This document shows positions 218-31,209 of a stretch of DNA of 32,000 nt, in pieces. How positions within the stretch are numbered: the first letter of the stretch is position 1; each line of letters starts with the position of its first letter. The DNA is taken from assembly GCF_000012345.1 (NCBI RefSeq), contig NC_007205.1, positions 600,001 through 632,000 on the forward strand, in the 5' to 3' direction. The position numbers and the translations under genes were made by a program. The notes beneath the pieces were generated by a model, which worked only from the letters and a program-made list of their open reading frames with translations, was not told the DNA's origin and searched no databases. This stretch comes from Candidatus Pelagibacter ubique HTCC1062 (GTDB taxonomy: Bacteria; Pseudomonadota; Alphaproteobacteria; Pelagibacterales; Pelagibacteraceae).

Positions 218-1227
218 AAGGTTCTTTGCAGACTAAATGATGTAAGACTCTCTAAAATCTTTTTTTCATCACTATCCTTAAATACAGTTAAAGAATTTGA
301 TGCAAGGTTAATAAAATGTTCAGCTTTTTTGTAGCATTCATTTATTATGTTGTATTTCTTAATAAGCTCTAAGGTTAAATTTAAATCTTCATTTGATCTT
401 GTTTCTTGTTTAAAAATATTTTTTAACTTATCTTTTTCTATTGATGATACATTCTGAAATAATAAAATAACAGGTAAAGTAATTTTACCCTCAAGAAAAT
501 CTTTACCAATTTTTTTACCAAAAAATTTTAGATCAGAATTGTAATCTAATGTGTCATCAGCAATTTGAAATGTTAAGCCTAAGTTTTTTCCATAAAACTC
601 TAGTGCCTCTTTTTCTTTTGTTTCTTTATTAGATAAAATTGCACCAACCTTAGTTGCTGCAGAAAAAAGTTCAGCTGTTTTTGCTGTAATAATCTTAAAA
701 TATGTTTCCTCCAACATGTCTACTTCACCTTTGTGTTGTAGTTGTAATACCTCTCCTTGAGCGATCTTTGACGAAGTTGAGGATAAAAGTTTTAAAACTT
801 CTATATTACCATCATCGACCATCATTTCAAAACATCTACTTAAAAGATAGTCACCAATTAATACAGAAGAGTGATTTCCCCAAATTGAATTTAATGTTTT
901 TTTACCTCTTCTAATATTTCCAAGATCAATGACATCATCATGCATTAAAGTGGCCCCATGTATCATTTCTACACATGCTGCTAAATTAATATCTCGACCT
1001 CCTTTAGTGTAGCCACATAACTTAGCTGACCCAAGTGTTAGTAGGGCTCTTAATCTTTTTCCACCAGTGTCGATATGATATTCAGTCATTTTTTGAACGA
1101 GGTCTACATCACTCAAGAGTTTTGATTTAATCTTTTCTTCAACTAAAACTAATTTTTCATCAACAGAATCTTTTAGCTGATAATATGAATTATTTATTTG
1201 GTTTCTAAGTTGAACTACAGTTCCCAT
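214..1227 (-). CDS. ispB: polyprenyl (octaprenyl-type) diphosphate synthase
   Basis: 337 aa ORF with both trans-prenyltransferase aspartate-rich motifs (LMHDDVIDLGNIRRG and FQIADDTLDY) and GKRLR near the N-terminus. Confidence 0.85.
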   Translation of the reverse strand: MGTVVQLRNQINNSYYQLKDSVDEKLVLVEEKIKSKLLSDVDLVQKMTEYHIDTGGKRLRALLTLGSAKLCGYTKGGRDINLAACVEMIHGATLMHDDVIDLGNIRRGKKTLNSIWGNHSSVLIGDYLLSRCFEMMVDDGNIEVLKLLSSTSSKIAQGEVLQLQHKGEVDMLEETYFKIITAKTAELFSAATKVGAILSNKETKEKEALEFYGKNLGLTFQIADDTLDYNSDLKFFGKKIGKDFLEGKITLPVILLFQNVSSIEKDKLKNIFKQETRSNEDLNLTLELIKKYNIINECYKKAEHFINLASNSLTVFKDSDEKKILESLTSFSLQRTF

Positions 1228-25821: not shown

Positions 25822-26973
25822 ATGACTAAAAACAACCTAAAAGTAGTTAAATCTACAAAAGCGCAACAATCAGAAGGCAACGAAAAAAACAAAGCTTTGG
25901 ACGCGGCAATGAGCCAAATTATCGATAATTTTGGAAAAGGATCAGTAATGAAACTTGGCCAAAGAAGAGCGATGGACGTCGAGTCTATTTCAACTGGATC
26001 ATTAAGTTTAGATGTAGCGCTTGGAATAGGTGGTTTACCAAAAGGAAGAGTTATTGAAGTCTATGGACCAGAATCATCTGGTAAAACAACTTTAGCATTG
26101 CAAGTATTAGCAGAAGCCCAAAAAGCTGGAGGAATTTGTGCGTTTATAGATGCAGAGCATGCCTTAGATCCAATTTATGCAAAAAAACTTGGTGTAGATA
26201 CTGAAGAATTATTAATTTCACAACCTGATACTGGCGAACAAGCTTTAGAAATAGCTGATACTTTAGTTAAATCAGGATCGATTTCTGTTATCGTAATTGA
26301 CTCTGTTGCAGCACTAACACCTAGAGCTGAAATTGAAGGAGAAATGGGAGATCACCATGTAGGACTTCAATCAAGATTAATGAGTCAGGCTTTAAGAAAA
26401 CTAACAGGTTCAATCTCAAGCACGAACACAATGATGATTTTTATTAACCAAATTAGAATGAAAATTGGGGTTATGTTTGGAAGTCCAGAGACTACATCTG
26501 GTGGAAATGCACTTAAGTTTTATTCATCTGTTAGAATGGACATTAGAAGAATTGGTGCCATTAAAAATGGAGATGAAATTATTGGTAATTCAACAAGAGT
26601 TAAAGTGGTTAAAAATAAAGTAGCACCACCATTTAAAGTTGTTGAATTTGACCTAATGTACGGCAAAGGTATTAGTAAAGTGGGTGAATTAGTTGACCTT
26701 GGTTCAAAAGCTGACATTGTTGAAAAAGCTGGAGCCTGGTATGCTTATAAAGGTGAAAAAATTGGCCAAGGAAGAGAAAATGCTAAAACTTATTTAGAGC
26801 AAAATCCTAAAATTGCAGCAGAAATTGAAATGGCAATTAGAGAAAAGGCTGGAGTGATAGCAAAAAAAATTGAAGGTAATCCACTAGATCCAGAAAAAGC
26901 AGCAAAAGATCAAATAGAGGAGCCTAAACTGGAAACAAAGGAAGAAGTAACACCTCCATCTAAAAAGAATTAG
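25822..26973 (+). CDS. recA: recombinase A
   Basis: 383 aa with Walker [10 protein letters not shown], the L1/L2 regions, [28 protein letters not shown] and a charged C-terminal tail. Confidence 0.98.
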
Positions 26974-26994: not shown

Positions 26995-27023
26995 AAAAGG
27001 CGCTTAATTTAAGCGCCTTTTTT
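26995..27023. terminator. Rho-independent terminator after recA, plausibly bidirectional (also closes the convergent protease gene)
   Basis: AAAA-GGCGCTT-aattt-AAGCGCC-TTTTTT. The stem is flanked by an A-tract and a T-tract, so a hairpin plus U-run forms on both strands. Confidence 0.8.
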
Positions 27024-27026
27024 CCC
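27005..27026 (+). repeat. direct repeat T, copy 1 (3' half of the recA terminator)
   Basis: TAATTTAAGCGCCTTTTTTCCC is identical over 22/22 nt to 28474-28495. Weaker similarity continues about 15 nt further (..ACT.TT.TCTAG). Confidence 0.9.
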
Positions 27027-27082
27027 AGACTGTTTCTAGGAATACCAACGCTTATTCAAACATACTCACACCAGATCTTTGC

Positions 27083-27115
27083 TTTATCTCTAAAAGTTCT
27101 AGTTATGGTTCTAGT
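27083..27115 (+). repeat. direct repeat X, copy 1
   Basis: TTTATCTCTAAAAGTTCTAGTTATGGTTCTAGT matches 28325-28357 at 31/33 nt. It contains the internal direct repeat GTTCTAGT-N4-GTTCTAGT. Confidence 0.85.
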
Positions 27116-27122
27116 CATCCTA

Positions 27123-27167
27123 TAAAATCCTATAACCCAGAACCACGATCCCTAAAAGTTTTTTCAT
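27123..27167 (-). pseudogene. 15-codon stub duplicating the 5' end of the protease gene (repeat M, copy 1)
   Basis: 27147-27167 (GATCCCTAAAAGTTTTTTCAT) is identical over 21/21 nt to 28264-28284, the protease start region. On the minus strand it reads ATG AAA AAA CTT TTA GGG ATC GTG GTT CTG GGT TAT AGG ATT TTA TAG (MKKLLGIVVLGYRIL*), beginning 1 nt after the protease stop codon. Confidence 0.6.
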
Positions 27168-27168
27168 A

Positions 27169-28284
27169 TTATTTAAATTCACTGAAGAATGCTTTTTGAT
27201 TATTGGCTTCTGCTCTCATTTTATTAATGTTAGCAACTGTCATATGACATTCTAGATAAACTGTTGCTTCTGTGATTAATTTTCCTAAATCTTTATTAGT
27301 TAATTCTTTATTGTTGGGTTGTGAAAATTTTAAGCTATTTGAGTTTGCAAAGGTTTTTAACGTTGAGGATTTAATTCCAAAGTGAACACCCTGTACACCC
27401 TCTTGAACCCATGAAGCTACTGCAATTCCCACAATATTTCCTTTTTGATTCATAATAGGTCCACCACTGTTACCTGCATTTATTGAAGCATCAGTTTGGA
27501 AGTTTGAATAATTATCCCCAGCTCCTGCAAGAGCTGTCACAACCCCTTTGTGAGTTTTAATTGCAGAACTAACTTTTTTTCCTAATGGATAACCTGCTAC
27601 AACTACATCTTCTAACAATGAAACATCTTCATTTGATATTGGAAAGATACTCGCTGGTTTAATATTTGTTTTTAGTATTGCTATATCGTTCATCTTATCA
27701 ACAGCTAATATTTGTGCATCTATTTGATTACCCTTAAAGCTAACTTTAGTTGTATTGCAGCCATCTATAACGTGATGATTGGTAATTATATGGCCCTCAC
27801 TTGAAACAAAGAATCCTGAACCTGATCCTGCAGGAACTACTTTGTTGTCATCAGGTTTTGGTTTTTGCTTTTTAGGTTCTTTCTTTTTAGGTTTTTCTGA
27901 GAAACGAACACCTTTAATAATCTCCTCTGGTTTTAAAGTTTTTTCAAATATATCCACTTCATTGTCCCAGGGATGTCTTACAAACTCAGTACCATTGAAA
28001 GAGTCTATCCAACTAGAAATTTCATATTTAAACAATAAACATCCGTCCTCTCTAATATTCTTCAATTTTGACTCTTTTTTACATTTGTCTAATGCTTTTT
28101 TTTTTGAAATTTCGAGAGACTTCCTACCCTTAAATGATGAATATATTCCATCATACACCTTCTCTGTGTTACCCTTTGATAGCTCCATATCAAAATAATT
28201 TTTATATGCTACATAATAGCTTTTTGCATAAGCATTCCCACTTAACAACAAACCTAAAACAATGATCCCTAAAAGTTTTTTCAT
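27169..28284 (-). CDS. secreted trypsin-like serine protease (S1C/DegP-like catalytic domain, no PDZ domain)
   Basis: 371 aa with signal peptide MKKLLGIIVLGLLLSGNAYA, an N-terminal ~100-aa domain with a Cys pair (ALDKCKK...EDGCLLF) and a Lys/Pro-rich linker EKPKKKEPKKQKPKPDD. The catalytic triad motifs are TNHHVIDG (His), NDIAILK (Asp) and GNSGGPIMN (Ser). Confidence 0.8.
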   Translation of the reverse strand: MKKLLGIIVLGLLLSGNAYAKSYYVAYKNYFDMELSKGNTEKVYDGIYSSFKGRKSLEISKKKALDKCKKESKLKNIREDGCLLFKYEISSWIDSFNGTEFVRHPWDNEVDIFEKTLKPEEIIKGVRFSEKPKKKEPKKQKPKPDDNKVVPAGSGSGFFVSSEGHIITNHHVIDGCNTTKVSFKGNQIDAQILAVDKMNDIAILKTNIKPASIFPISNEDVSLLEDVVVAGYPLGKKVSSAIKTHKGVVTALAGAGDNYSNFQTDASINAGNSGGPIMNQKGNIVGIAVASWVQEGVQGVHFGIKSSTLKTFANSNSLKFSQPNNKELTNKDLGKLITEATVYLECHMTVANINKMRAEANNQKAFFSEFK

Positions 28285-28324
28285 TATTAAACGTTATCAA
28301 AAGACTCGAGAATTAACCATCTGA

Positions 28325-28357
28325 TTTATCTCAAAAAGTTCTAGTTGTGGTTCTAGT
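28325..28357 (+). repeat. direct repeat X, copy 2 (upstream of the protease start)
   Basis: TTTATCTCAAAAAGTTCTAGTTGTGGTTCTAGT matches 27083-27115 at 31/33 nt. Confidence 0.85.
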
Positions 28358-28422
28358 TTATTACTTAATTTGATGAGTCTTTACGCAAATTATCTTTAAT
28401 CAATTTTTTATTATCTGCATAA

Positions 28423-28460
28423 CTAGTGTAAGCTAGTGTGAGCTAGTGTGAGGTAGTGTG
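28423..28460. repeat. 10-bp tandem repeat, about 3.8 copies
   Basis: CTAGTGTAAG CTAGTGTGAG CTAGTGTGAG GTAGTGTG, in the divergent protease/alaS spacer. Confidence 0.9.
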
Positions 28461-28473
28461 TCCCTCAAGTGCA

Positions 28474-28495
28474 TAATTTAAGCGCCTTTTTTCCC
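28474..28495 (+). repeat. direct repeat T, copy 2 (orphan terminator half without its pairing partner)
   Basis: TAATTTAAGCGCCTTTTTTCCC matches 27005-27026 at 22/22 nt. The complementary GGCGCTTAA arm is absent here, so no hairpin can form. Confidence 0.9.
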
Positions 28496-28539
28496 TACAC
28501 TTATCTAGACATCAAATAAAAAAGCTGTATTTTAATTAT

Positions 28540-31209
28540 ATGGCTGACAAAACACTAAATCAAATTAGAACAACTTTTTTAGATTATTTTGAAAAAAATG
28601 ATCACAAGATTGTTGAATCTAGTAATTTAGTTCCAAATAATGATCCGACATTAATGTTTGCAAATTCAGGAATGGTACAATTTAAAAATATATTTACTGG
28701 ATTAGAGAAAAGAGACTATGTAAGAGCAACAACTTCGCAAAAATGTGTAAGGGCAGGTGGTAAGCATAACGACCTTGAAAATGTAGGTTATACACCAAGA
28801 CACCATACATTTTTTGAAATGCTTGGAAATTTTTCATTTGGAGATTATTTTAAAGAAGAGGCAATTAGTTACGCATGGAATTTAATAACTAAAGAGTTCG
28901 GAATTGATAAAAATCGTCTCTATGTAACAGTTTATCATAACGATGAAGAAGCATTTAACTTTTGGAAGAAAATAGCTGGTTTTAGTGATGATAGAATAAT
29001 CAAGATAGCAACGTCAGATAACTTTTGGTCAATGGGTGATACAGGGCCTTGTGGACCATGTTCTGAAATATTTTATGATCACGGTGATCATCTAGAGGGT
29101 GGTTTACCTGGCACTAAAAACGAAGATGGTAATAGGTTTATAGAAATATGGAATTTAGTATTCATGCAATATGAGCAAATTTCAAAAGATAAGAGAATAA
29201 ATTTACCAAAACCATCTGTGGATACGGGTATGGGTCTTGAGAGAATAGCGGCACTATTACAGGGAACACACGATAACTACGAAACAGATCATTTTAAAAA
29301 ACTAATACTATCTGCATCTGACACATTAAACGTTAAAGTAACTGATGACAATCAATCAAGCTTTAGAGTAATAGCAGATCATTTACGAGCAAGTTCATTT
29401 TTATTAGCAGAAGGAGTTTTACCTTCTAATGAAGGAAGAGGTTATGTTCTAAGAAGAATTATGAGACGTGGAATGAGACACTCACATTTACTTGGTTCTA
29501 AAAAACCAGTTTTCTATAATATTTTTAAAACGCTTCTAGAAGAAATGTCTAATAATTATCCAGAACTTGAAAGAGCACAATCTTTAATAAAAGAAACATT
29601 AAAAACAGAAGAAGAAAAGTTTTTGGTTTTATTAGATAGAGGGATAAAAATATTAAATGAAGAGCTAGAGAAAGTAGAAAAGATATTGCCTGGTGAAGTG
29701 GCATTTAAGCTTTATGATACATTTGGTTTTCCATTAGATTTAACAGAAGATATTTTGAAAAATAAATCAATGACTGTCGATGGGGAGAAGTTTGATTTAT
29801 TAATGAAAGAAAGTAAAAAATTAGCAAAAAAAAATTGGAAAGGATCAGGGGATAGTTCGGTAGATCAAATTTGGTTTGATATAAAAGATCGTTTAGGGGC
29901 AACTGATTTTTTAGGATATTCTACAGATAAAGCAGAAGGTGTAGTCACTTTAATTCTTAAAAATAATAAAGAGGTTCAAGATCTACAAGAAAACGATGAA
30001 GGCATTATAATAACAAATCAAACACCATTTTATGGAGAGTCAGGAGGACAAGTTGCAGATACTGGAATAATCTCTAAAGAGGCTTTTGAATTTGAAGTGT
30101 CTGATGTTCAAAAAAAATTAGGAGATTTATTTGTTCATTACGGAAAAGTTAAAAGAGGTTCAGTTAAACTAAAAGACAATGTTGAATTAAAAATAGATAC
30201 ACAGAGAAGAAATAATATTAGAGCTTACCATTCTGCCACTCATTTGTTGCACGAAGCATTAAGAAGAGTTTTGGGTGAGCATGTAACCCAAAAAGGATCT
30301 TTAGTTCAATCTGATCGATTAAGATTTGATTTTAGTCATATGAAACCTATTTCAGATGAAGAGATTAGAAAAATTGAACATTATGTAAACTCAATAATTG
30401 AAAAAAAGTCAGAGGTGAAAACAAGAATAATGACACCTAAAGAAGCTGTTGAAAATGGCGCCCTAGCATTATTTGGGGAAAAATATGGTGATGAAGTTAG
30501 AGTTTTGTCTATGGGAGATGAAGAAGGTAAATTTTTCTCAACTGAATTATGTGGAGGAACTCACGTTGTAAACACAGCTGATATTGGAAAATTTAAGATT
30601 ATTAGCCAATCTTCTATTGCTGCAGGCGTAAGAAGAGTTGAAGCATTAAGAGACGCACAGTTAATTGATTTTTTAAAGGAAAAAGAAAACCAATCCAATT
30701 TGTCGGATCAAAAAAATGAGGCAGTTATAAAAGAATTAGAGACAAAGATTATTAAATTAGGAGGAAAACCTAATCTTCAAAACAAGGATCAAGTAACTTT
30801 AATAAAAGACCTTAATAGACAATTTGATCAACTTTCAGTTATCTCAATATTAAAAGATAAAGATAAAAATAAAATCAACGATCAAACCATTAATGGATTT
30901 AAAGTTAGATTTCAAAATATTATAGATTTACCATTTAAAGATTTACGTAAGCTAATTGATGAAGGCAAAAAAGAAATTGGTGAAGGGTTAGTTGTAATTT
31001 ATGCAATCAATGATAATAAAGTTGGGTTGGCTGTAGGTGTTACCAAAACATTAGAAAAAAAGTTTGATGCTGTAAAAATTGTTAGAGCTGGTTCAGAAGT
31101 TATTGGGGGTAAAGGCGGTGGTGGCAGAGCTGACTTTGCACAAGCTGGAGGAACTTTGCCTGATAAAATTGAAGAGTCTTTTGAAAATATTAAAAAACTA
31201 ATTAATTAA
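28540..31209 (+). CDS. alaS: alanine--tRNA ligase
   Basis: 889 aa with the class II core ([42 protein letters not shown]), the editing-domain HxxxH/CxxxH motifs ([13 protein letters not shown]) and a C-terminal DHHA1 domain ([16 protein letters not shown]). Confidence 0.97.

Follow-up and report, generated by a model that had tools for sequence, protein, structure and literature searches.

The islet that separates recA from alaS on the chromosome of Candidatus Pelagibacter ubique HTCC1062 bears the marks of site-specific integration. It lies within a window of 32,000 nt (NC_007205.1, positions 600,001 to 632,000; all coordinates below count from the first letter of this stretch) and holds one gene, for a secreted serine protease, nested inside three pairs of direct repeats that are here called T, X and M. 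We propose, at a probability of roughly 0.88, that the islet descends from a family of circular, satellite-like integrative elements of SAR11 (~9.1 kb) as a form with no integrase and a single cargo gene, integrated site-specifically at the recA terminator. An empty host site (attB), an element site (attP), collinearity of attP with the two junctions of the islet (attL and attR), variable cargo, arrays of cassettes and an integrase gene adjoining attP were all observed. HTCC1062 is the type strain of the ocean's most abundant bacterial clade, and its genome was reportedly described at first as lacking genes of mobile elements. The recA-alaS locus is a clear mobile-element footprint in this genome, and the proposed integration would supply a defined mechanism for one small strain-specific insert.

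The insert and its empty site

The first-pass annotation of this DNA, made from the letters alone, had described repeats nested in the order T1-X1-M1-gene-M2-X2-T2, every pair in direct orientation, with identities of 22/22 nt for T, 31/33 for X and 21/21 for M. A repeat scan bore out this order and recovered all three pairs. The window contains exactly two copies of T (TAATTTAAGCGCCTTTTTTCCC), at 27005-27026 and 28474-28495 on the plus strand; their identity stretches to 25 nt with one mismatch, and no third copy was present at up to 3 mismatches (0 expected from shuffles). The X copies match at 31/33 nt (27083-27115 and 28325-28357), or at 33/36 when widened to 27080-27115 and 28322-28357 (0 expected), and the M copies at 21/21 nt (27147-27167 and 28264-28284), or at 30/34 over 27134-27167 and 28251-28284. 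The three pairs are confirmed as real and non-random, and each is of different origin.

T1, the putative att core in attL, is bound up with the terminator of recA. This hairpin (26995-27023) has perfect 13-nt arms at 26995-27007 and 27009-27021, preceded by an A-run and followed by a T-run, and it is bidirectional, folding at -15.7 kcal/mol on the plus strand and -16.2 kcal/mol on the minus strand. The block of identity opens in the hairpin loop and covers the 3' arm and U-tract of this strong hairpin (z -4.95 on the plus strand), which agrees with the earlier description of T1. T2, the corresponding core in attR, has no pairing arm. Its context is unfolded (-3.4 kcal/mol, z -0.1), empty sites carry a single T, and its interpretation as an orphan half left by insertion was upheld.

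A recA-seeded scan of species-representative genomes yielded 25 SAR11 loci, and the synteny of a tolC-like gene, recA and alaS is kept in all of them. In the 19 closest loci, which belong to related Pelagibacter species with recA proteins 83-92% identical in amino acids, the recA-alaS spacer is only ~100 bp long and contains one T, an intact recA hairpin and no protease. The suspicion that some lineages would run from the recA terminator directly to the alaS promoter is thus borne out in 19 related species. Their spacer reads ...AAAAGGCGCTTAA(A/T)TTAAGCGCCTTTTTTCCC|T(T)AC...ATCTAGACATCAAATAAAAAAGCTGTATTTTA..ATG, where the bar marks the junction, which can also be written ...AAAAGGCGCTTAAATTAAGCGCCTTTTTTCCC|TAC..ATCTAGACATC... 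Up to 27026, and again beyond 28495, the sequence of HTCC1062 coincides exactly with this empty-site spacer; the islet is therefore a 1469-bp insert (27027-28495) flanked by a 22-bp duplication whose first bases lie in the loop of the terminator palindrome. From these alignments, attB would be the 3' half of the palindromic recA terminator, bearing one T. Six more distant SAR11 loci have a ~2.2-kb recA-alaS interval with a conserved aldehyde dehydrogenase-like gene (517 aa, named by sequence resemblance) and a gene of 115-124 aa, and no protease was found in this interval. Since the protease is the only long open reading frame (ORF) of the islet, the islet is a non-autonomous derivative, and the observation that it encodes no recombinase stands.

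The attachment site on circular elements

The exact 22-mer T was found in two viral contigs of IMG/VR, L091 and L092. To the left of T these contigs carry the right arm of the window, with CTAGTGTG 10-mers followed by TCCCTCA(A/C)(G/A)TGC, so that 10-mers...TCCCTCAAGTGC abut T as they do in HTCC1062. To the right of T they carry the left arm of the window, namely 12 nt, the conserved 21-mer GGAATACCAACGCTTATTCAA, ~20 nt and an X-like repeat. The putative P' arm of the window (27027-27115, plus strand) holds the same 21-mer at 27039-27059 and X1 at 27080-27115, and it is collinear with the right-of-T sequence in L091, L092 and a third contig, L110 (89% over 111 nt, gapless). The metagenomic attP of L110 matches the attR end of the window (28423-28495) at 73/73 nt and attL at 89% of 111 nt, and its X is identical to X1.

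The two ends of L091 overlap directly by 77 nt and those of L092 by 120 nt, which indicates that both are circular assemblies of ~9.1 kb. Elements of this type encode a 572-aa ORF, a 923-aa protein of the archaeo-eukaryotic primase (AEP)/DUF5906 kind, a RusA-like resolvase and small ORFs of unknown function, and searches of Pfam and PHROGs gave no capsid or terminase matches. The 9.1-kb element is thus of satellite type in its gene content: it is small and integrative, has genes for replication and yielded none for virion structure. The protease is absent from the 9.1-kb circular elements and no relatives of it were found in viral contigs; GenBank phage records contained no match to the 9.1-kb element or to the 572-aa protein. 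Contigs bearing the integrase gene cluster at ~9.1 kb and at ~17-19 kb, twice the unit length. L110 (16.6 kb) holds two different variants head to tail; a chromosomal tandem array was considered for it and dropped, since the arms match at both junctions, and a concatemer or wrap-around assembly of two variants is more likely. Together with L110, the size clusters suggest concatemers or wrap-around assemblies.

Geometry of the arms

X is built of a constant head, TTTATCTC, followed by ~5 nt and two units of 7-8 nt spaced ~12 nt apart, 36 nt overall. In X1 (27080-27115) the head is followed by 5 nt and GTTCTAGT-N4-GTTCTAGT, and X2, the P-arm copy (28322-28357, plus strand), is of the same type. 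X is present on both arms of attP. Every copy detected on a P' arm begins at +44, counted from the 21-mer, and the P-arm copy of autonomous elements falls within the opening ~20 codons of the integrase gene. On the integrase-less P arm of the window, X2 is followed by a spacer (28358-28420) that is conserved among cassettes with different cargo, by four tandem 10-mers on the plus strand (AACTAGTGTA AGCTAGTGTG AGCTAGTGTG AGGTAGTGTG, 28421-28460) as the core-proximal repeats, and by T2. The distance from X2 (counted from the TTTATCTC start, 28325) to T2 is 149 nt in the window and 149-150 nt in 25 of 27 pairs, two empty scars included; it is 159 nt in L095 and in the empty scar of L119. P arms typically carry three or four 10-mer units, the last of which lies 13 nt from T in 53/58 cases. 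The spacers between X and the 10-mers are non-homologous between integrase-less arms and arms that contain an integrase start, yet they are equal in length and align without gaps. X, the 10-mers or both are probably arm-type binding sites, those in X for the arm-binding domain of the integrase or for an accessory factor.

The units of X fall into several types (GTTCTAGT, xATCTAGT, TCTCTAGT, TTGCTAGT, GTxTCGAGT and TTGCATGT). Both copies of one cassette, or both arms of one free attP, are of the same type, and neighbours in an array often differ. Within cassettes the X copies agree at 19.2/26 positions vs. 14.4 +/- 0.65 when X2 was shuffled, a value reached in 0/10,000 shuffles; the test is indicative only, as related cassettes are non-independent samples. 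Two earlier inferences were not upheld. The annotation had counted four copies of one motif in X and M, and a 14-mer core does have four matches in the window vs. 0.22 expected, but it is lost in relatives with another X type; the common core is peculiar to X of the GTTCTAGT type, and X varies by type while M is constant. Repeated insertion or replacement events had also been invoked for the mirrored order of the repeats, and they are unnecessary, because a single integration of an attP with X on both arms yields T1-X1...X2-T2. Empty units with a single X (L154 and the first unit of L119) are compatible with deletion between X1 and X2.

Two other accounts of X were tried and rejected. The GTTC-N8-GTTC in X, close to recA, recalls the alphaproteobacterial LexA box, whose consensus is GTTC-N7-GTTC; this idea fails on the spacing, on the absence of GTTC from other X types and on the membership of X in attP. 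Insertion of cargo at X with duplication of X is superfluous, since autonomous elements already have X on both arms.

The integrase-like protein

The 572-aa ORF adjoins attP and begins ~70 nt from the P-arm 10-mers. Its product matches the PHROG_1 integrase family at E 1.9e-15 and has 346 metagenomic homologues, several of which carry PF00589 or are named integrase and one of which comes from a Pelagibacterales metagenome-assembled genome. Six residues, R387, K414, K507, R510, H534 and Y544, are invariant in 20 homologues of 57-85% identity, their presumed catalytic roles being assigned by motif inspection and not by structural superposition. With the AlphaFold model of the protein, the top 8 Foldseek matches in the PDB are all tyrosine recombinases (E 4e-3 or worse; model predicted local distance difference test, pLDDT, 61), and the N-terminus matches the arm-type binding domains 3jtz, 3rmp and 3ju0 of P4-like and high-pathogenicity-island (HPI) integrases, at TMt 0.56-0.59 on this low-confidence model. 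The case for the 572-aa protein as a tyrosine recombinase is good, yet short of airtight. Where the P-arm X lies within the integrase ORF, it is read as peptide repeats at the N-terminus, such as LETSLET in L092 (~790-870, minus strand) and KLDAKLDAKLD in the right-arm pseudogene of L161.

A hot spot with variable cargo

Metagenome contigs were searched with the P'-arm 21-mer, giving 106 stretches, of which 80 were analysed. These contain 81 occurrences of the motif: 44 follow the recA hairpin (attL), 16 follow the integrase-less P arm of another cassette, 12 follow an integrase gene (attP-like), and 9 have upstream sequence too short to classify. Where the left context is readable (72/81), it is always the recA hairpin or the P arm of another element. 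On contigs that also include alaS, its start codon is 262 to 3603 nt away from where the 21-mer begins.

Cargo is mostly on the minus strand. Between recA and alaS we found two prepilin-like genes, a methyltransferase, secreted proteins resembling dienelactone hydrolases or S9 peptidases, a metallo-beta-lactamase (MBL)-fold hydrolase, tetratricopeptide repeat (TPR) proteins (397-834 aa), some of which include a methyltransferase domain, a GT4 glycosyltransferase, proteases and several secreted proteins of unknown kind. One locus, L154, is an empty 227-bp unit that consists of T, the P' arm, one X, the spacer, the 10-mers and T. Tandem arrays with three T copies occur in L119 (an empty unit, then a cargo cassette) and L106 (two cargo cassettes). 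An integrase start or fragment is left beside alaS in L094, L161 and L162, and 250-330 nt of element interior are left beside recA in L107, L114 and L115; these six are decayed autonomous copies.

The hot-spot reading of the first-pass annotation is supported by these loci, which carry different genes between T copies across lineages in addition to the empty sites. Neither of the patterns that would have spoken against it was seen: the arrangement is not invariant in relatives, since cargo and occupancy both vary, and T, X and M do not form a generic repeat family dispersed at random sites, the window containing no further copies of them and the readable left contexts in metagenomes being those given above. 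The first-pass annotation had recognised neither the origin from a mobile element nor a possible integrase supplied in trans.

A separate observation concerns L156, a close relative of HTCC1062 (recA 97% identical), in which attL is followed by more than 7.5 kb of metabolic-looking minus-strand genes before the contig ends short of alaS. Judged by resemblance only, the genes at +133 to beyond +7300 from the 21-mer are aminotransferase-like, peptidase M24/creatinase-like, EamA-like and MoeA/MobA-like. The insert may represent a large cargo or a rearrangement.

Leader and cargo gene

The cargo gene of HTCC1062 (27169-28284, minus strand) encodes a secreted S1C/Trypsin_2 serine protease of 371 aa, as classified by Pfam. 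M2 (28251-28284) is its signal-peptide leader, in keeping with the earlier call that M2 is the true 5' end of the gene. M1 belongs to a conserved block that follows X1 (27116-27167, minus strand) and is, as had been noted, a stub of 15 codons (MKKLLGIVVLGYRIL*; 27167->27120) that starts one base past the protease stop; we regard it as the fossil start of a signal-peptide gene. The stub, MKKLLGIVVLG(F)YRI(L/N)*, was located in 28 loci with various cargo at +90 to +108 relative to the 21-mer, most often at +100 to +108, both where the cargo gene begins with the same leader and where it does not; in L108 and L139 it no longer has a start codon. M1 is accordingly the decaying remainder of a former gene with this leader and is now part of the left arm of the cassette. 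The leader ATGAAAAAACTTTTAGGGATC (MKKLLGI(I/V)VLGLLL) opens many unrelated cargo genes, and the likeness of M1 and M2 is therefore that of a common leader and not of a local duplication.

The leader may also serve as portable homology for swaps of gene bodies, given that L089, L138, L139, L119 and the window have arms and leader in common and differ in the gene body. L089, another P. ubique genome, has arms like those of HTCC1062 and a 504-aa protease whose C-terminal domain is ~90% identical in DNA and whose N-terminal domain is unrelated. The 37 nt upstream of the protease (28285-28321, minus strand), a 5' leader or promoter region of the cargo, are found as the same sequence upstream of different cargo in L089, L139 and L119. 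The GC content and codon usage of the protease gene were checked and are ordinary for SAR11, so that composition would not have flagged it.

Proposed mechanism and alternative explanations

In the mechanism that we favor, the attP core T of the element recombines site-specifically with attB in the terminator. The crossover would fall within T, probably near the loop, a position suggested by analogy with tRNA-targeting integrases. The element's own copy of T would rebuild the full terminator at attL (T1) and leave an orphan half at attR (T2); attL would then comprise T1 and 27027-27115 (core and P' arm), and attR would comprise 28322-28473 and T2 (P arm and core). The islet of HTCC1062 would have retained ~90 nt of the P' arm and ~150 nt of the P arm, and the integrase would be gone. 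Because the recA terminator is restored and the promoter-like block of alaS is left intact, the site can tolerate inserts. Cargo would be transcribed from the P-arm side, with transcription ended by the bidirectional recA hairpin. Exchange of cargo would probably proceed by homologous recombination in the conserved arms and leader, and possibly also by an integrase acting in trans.

Several points weigh against integration by this element. The 572-aa protein itself has no Pfam match, missing PF00589, and a profile search of PDB sequences was empty; the fold matches are weak (E 4e-3 and worse) and were obtained on a model of pLDDT 61; and catalysis by the protein is presumed from its sequence. 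No integrase homologue on the 1.3-Mb contig of HTCC1062 was among the best 120 matches. No excised circular cassettes were seen among the contigs searched, and the integrase-less spacer is absent from viral contigs, so that the cassettes may be fossils that no longer move and are reshuffled by homologous recombination alone. Because an element sequence served as the seed of the metagenome search, its results do not give occupancy frequencies.

The most serious alternative is that T, X and M are merely portable homology for RecA-dependent exchange, of Campbell or double-crossover type, by which circles or fragments of DNA from other SAR11 cells would be inserted or would replace resident sequence, with no site-specific recombinase involved. 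Such exchange would explain why L089, L138 and L139 have like arms and different cargo, as if by swaps between identical arms, why many variable segments are bounded by M on both sides, and why no circular cassettes were found. We nevertheless consider it improbable, as in circular 9-kb elements the exact T lies beside an integrase gene and joins the two arms in the fashion of attP, the block of identity opens in the loop of the palindrome as in tRNA att sites, the arm geometry is conserved within 1 nt across non-homologous spacers, and 22 nt is a marginal length for RecA-dependent exchange.

It is also conceivable that the repeats arose by slippage or duplication and took on local regulatory roles, T2 as an attenuator or insulator for alaS and X1/X2 as operators of the protease. 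The two-unit, 12-nt-period form of X does resemble a protein-binding site, and T2 lies 44 nt upstream of the alaS start codon. This origin is very unlikely, however, given that the context of T2 is unfolded, that free circular elements without the protease also possess this T, X and the 10-mers, that related genomes have neither the repeats nor the gene at the recA-alaS site, and that tandem duplication cannot yield the order T1-X1-M1-gene-M2-X2-T2. Least credible of all is a transposon, insertion sequence or element resembling a miniature inverted-repeat transposable element (MITE), with T as the target-site duplication. The islet is indeed a discrete insert flanked by direct repeats; but a duplication of 22 nt far exceeds the target-site duplications that are known, no terminal inverted repeats turned up at the ends of the insert in the repeat scan, a transposase is absent, and one site with a near-constant T recurs in the 72/81 motif occurrences with a readable left flank, including all 44 adjacent to recA.

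Beyond integration at the recA terminator, we tentatively suggest, with the odds somewhat against us, that the integrase-less units may be functional miniature cassettes and not dead remnants, each retaining a complete attP of conserved geometry and made up, in this order, of T, the P' arm, X, a single cargo gene, X, a spacer of fixed length, the 10-mers and T. They would be moved in trans by the 572-aa integrase of a matching 9-kb element, with X type as a specificity code, and would build integron-like arrays of genes for surface and secreted proteins. The conserved geometry, the matched X types, the frequent arrays with mismatched junctions and the presence of a cognate autonomous element in metagenomes are in favor of such mobility. 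Against it, circular cassettes were not found, viral contigs contain no cassettes, and homologous recombination in SAR11 could also spread them.

Relation to known elements

The tycheposons of Prochlorococcus, attributed to Hackl and colleagues in 2023 (cited in PMC9618062 and PMC11876622), reportedly target tRNA genes, and their cargo-carrying and decayed copies are said to stack in arrays. Like them, the present elements appear to combine a deep-branching large tyrosine recombinase with a primase/helicase module, and they form arrays separated by partial target copies, which make up flexible islands in a streamlined marine bacterium. Unlike tycheposons, which use tRNA or tmRNA targets, they appear to use the recA terminator as attB, and their cassettes mostly contain a single gene and retain the two arms of attP with fixed spacing.

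The cassettes also resemble cis-mobilizable elements (CIMEs) and other integrase-less islands, being flanked by attL and attR, devoid of a recombinase and in principle mobilisable by the integrase of a related element; the empty unit of 227 bp is similar to a solo scar. CIMEs usually span many kilobases and are formed by accretion beside an integrative and conjugative element (ICE), unlike the present cassettes, for which mobilisation in trans is only a possibility. As in integrons, genes that look promoterless follow one another singly at one site, all in the same orientation, with a repeated recombination site between them. Unlike integron cassettes, they have no attC hairpin, no IntI and no Pc, and the repeated unit is a remnant of a phage-type attP, with the core and both arms.

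Marine satellite-like integrative elements of Pelagibacter are already known as a class. Eppley et al. described integrative mobile elements encapsidated in virions (VEIMEs) as satellites of Pelagibacter, with a Pelagibacter-associated module 2 that carries periplasmic serine proteases (Eppley et al., 2022; PMC9618062), and Biller et al. reported tyrosine-recombinase elements with Pelagibacter integration regions "frequently near tRNAs" (Biller et al., 2025; PMC11876622). The element described here shares with VEIMEs and marine phage satellites a size of ~9 kb, a putative tyrosine integrase, primase/helicase functions, no detected capsid or terminase, circular or dimer-sized contigs and a Pelagibacter host. 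Packaging in the capsids of a helper phage would be in keeping with two indirect signs, the listing of the element in IMG/VR and the occurrence of dimer-length contigs. The element differs from VEIMEs in that its attB appears to be the palindrome of a Rho-independent terminator between recA and alaS. We found no description of integrase-less single-gene cassettes with complete arms, or of their arrays, in either report (PMC9618062; PMC11876622).

All known temperate pelagiphages are reported to integrate at tRNA genes (Du et al., 2021; PMC8477408). The present element resembles them in that a short identical core (11-46 bp) is common to attP and a structured-RNA gene of the host, in that the host feature is rebuilt after integration, and in that HTCC1062 is a host (Zhao et al., 2018, 10.1101/410191; PMC8477408). 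It is unlike these phages, which are 30-40 kb in size, carry structural genes and use a tRNA attB. Small variable inserts in HTCC1062 were reported without a mechanism by Rusch et al., whose data conflict with initial claims that this genome has no horizontally acquired genes (Rusch et al., 2007), and a recent study of the SAR11 pangenome, which does not mention recA/alaS, found no canonical mobile elements in islands (PMC11796062). In the literature searched, neither a terminator attB nor integrase-less cassettes whose arm geometry is conserved were found described, and this silence is not proof of novelty.

If the proposed mechanism holds, the terminator palindrome would be a non-tRNA addition to the known integration sites of SAR11 elements, and the locus would be a compact hot spot for the exchange of single genes between cells, among them pilins, proteases, hydrolases and TPR proteins. 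SAR11 is not known to have a genetic system. The cognate integrase, an attP of ~250 bp and a natural chromosomal attB that takes up inserts and spares recA and alaS would make a candidate tool for site-specific integration.

Relatives of the protease and the host flanks

The protease family is modular. Dozens of metagenomic proteins (P0003-P0033, together with the relatives in L089 and L090) are 87-94% identical over the C-terminal 61%, which is the catalytic domain, and have unrelated N-terminal domains and lengths of 244-546 aa. A paralogue in Pelagibacter sp. Uisw_092 (L090) lies between gatB and a methyltransferase gene and opens with the M leader. A full-length homologue with 73% amino acid identity (P0002) is encoded in a different small island on a TARA contig (L088, 1-4040), where a tRNA-like 5' fragment with a CAT anticodon is followed by a 301-aa Phage_integrase protein, a zinc-ribbon membrane protein, two paralogous 180-aa proteins and the protease. 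ARAGORN calls no complete tRNA there, and AGGTACTCAC repeats follow the tRNA-like end. The island in L088 indicates that the protease family travels on at least two kinds of integrative element.

A leader of ~37 nt, CTACCAAACCTCTAATCAGGTGTCTAGGTGATGGAAT (shown as the reverse complement), lies between the start codons of unrelated cargo genes and X2 in L167, L137, L160, L111, L142, L144 and others, and also in L088 (1100-1150), between the integrase and the next gene. It may be a common promoter or an element of the 5' untranslated region. HTCC1062 has a different leader at this position (28285-28321).

A search of Rfam with the islet returned nothing above threshold, and a promoter and terminator scan was uninformative, missing even the recA hairpin. 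The host genes on either side are both on the plus strand, recA at 25822-26973 (Pfam RecA, E 2e-142) and alaS at 28540-31209 (Pfam tRNA-synt_2c, E 8e-211). Immediately upstream of alaS is a promoter-like block (28497-28539, plus strand) with TAGACA-16-TATTTT at 28506-28533, which is host sequence identical to the right side of the empty sites. The ATCTAGACATCAAATAAAAAAGCTGTATTTTA block before alaS is near-invariant between the window and the 19 empty-site loci, although the alaS proteins are only 63-83% identical, a degree of conservation that exceeds the needs of a simple promoter.

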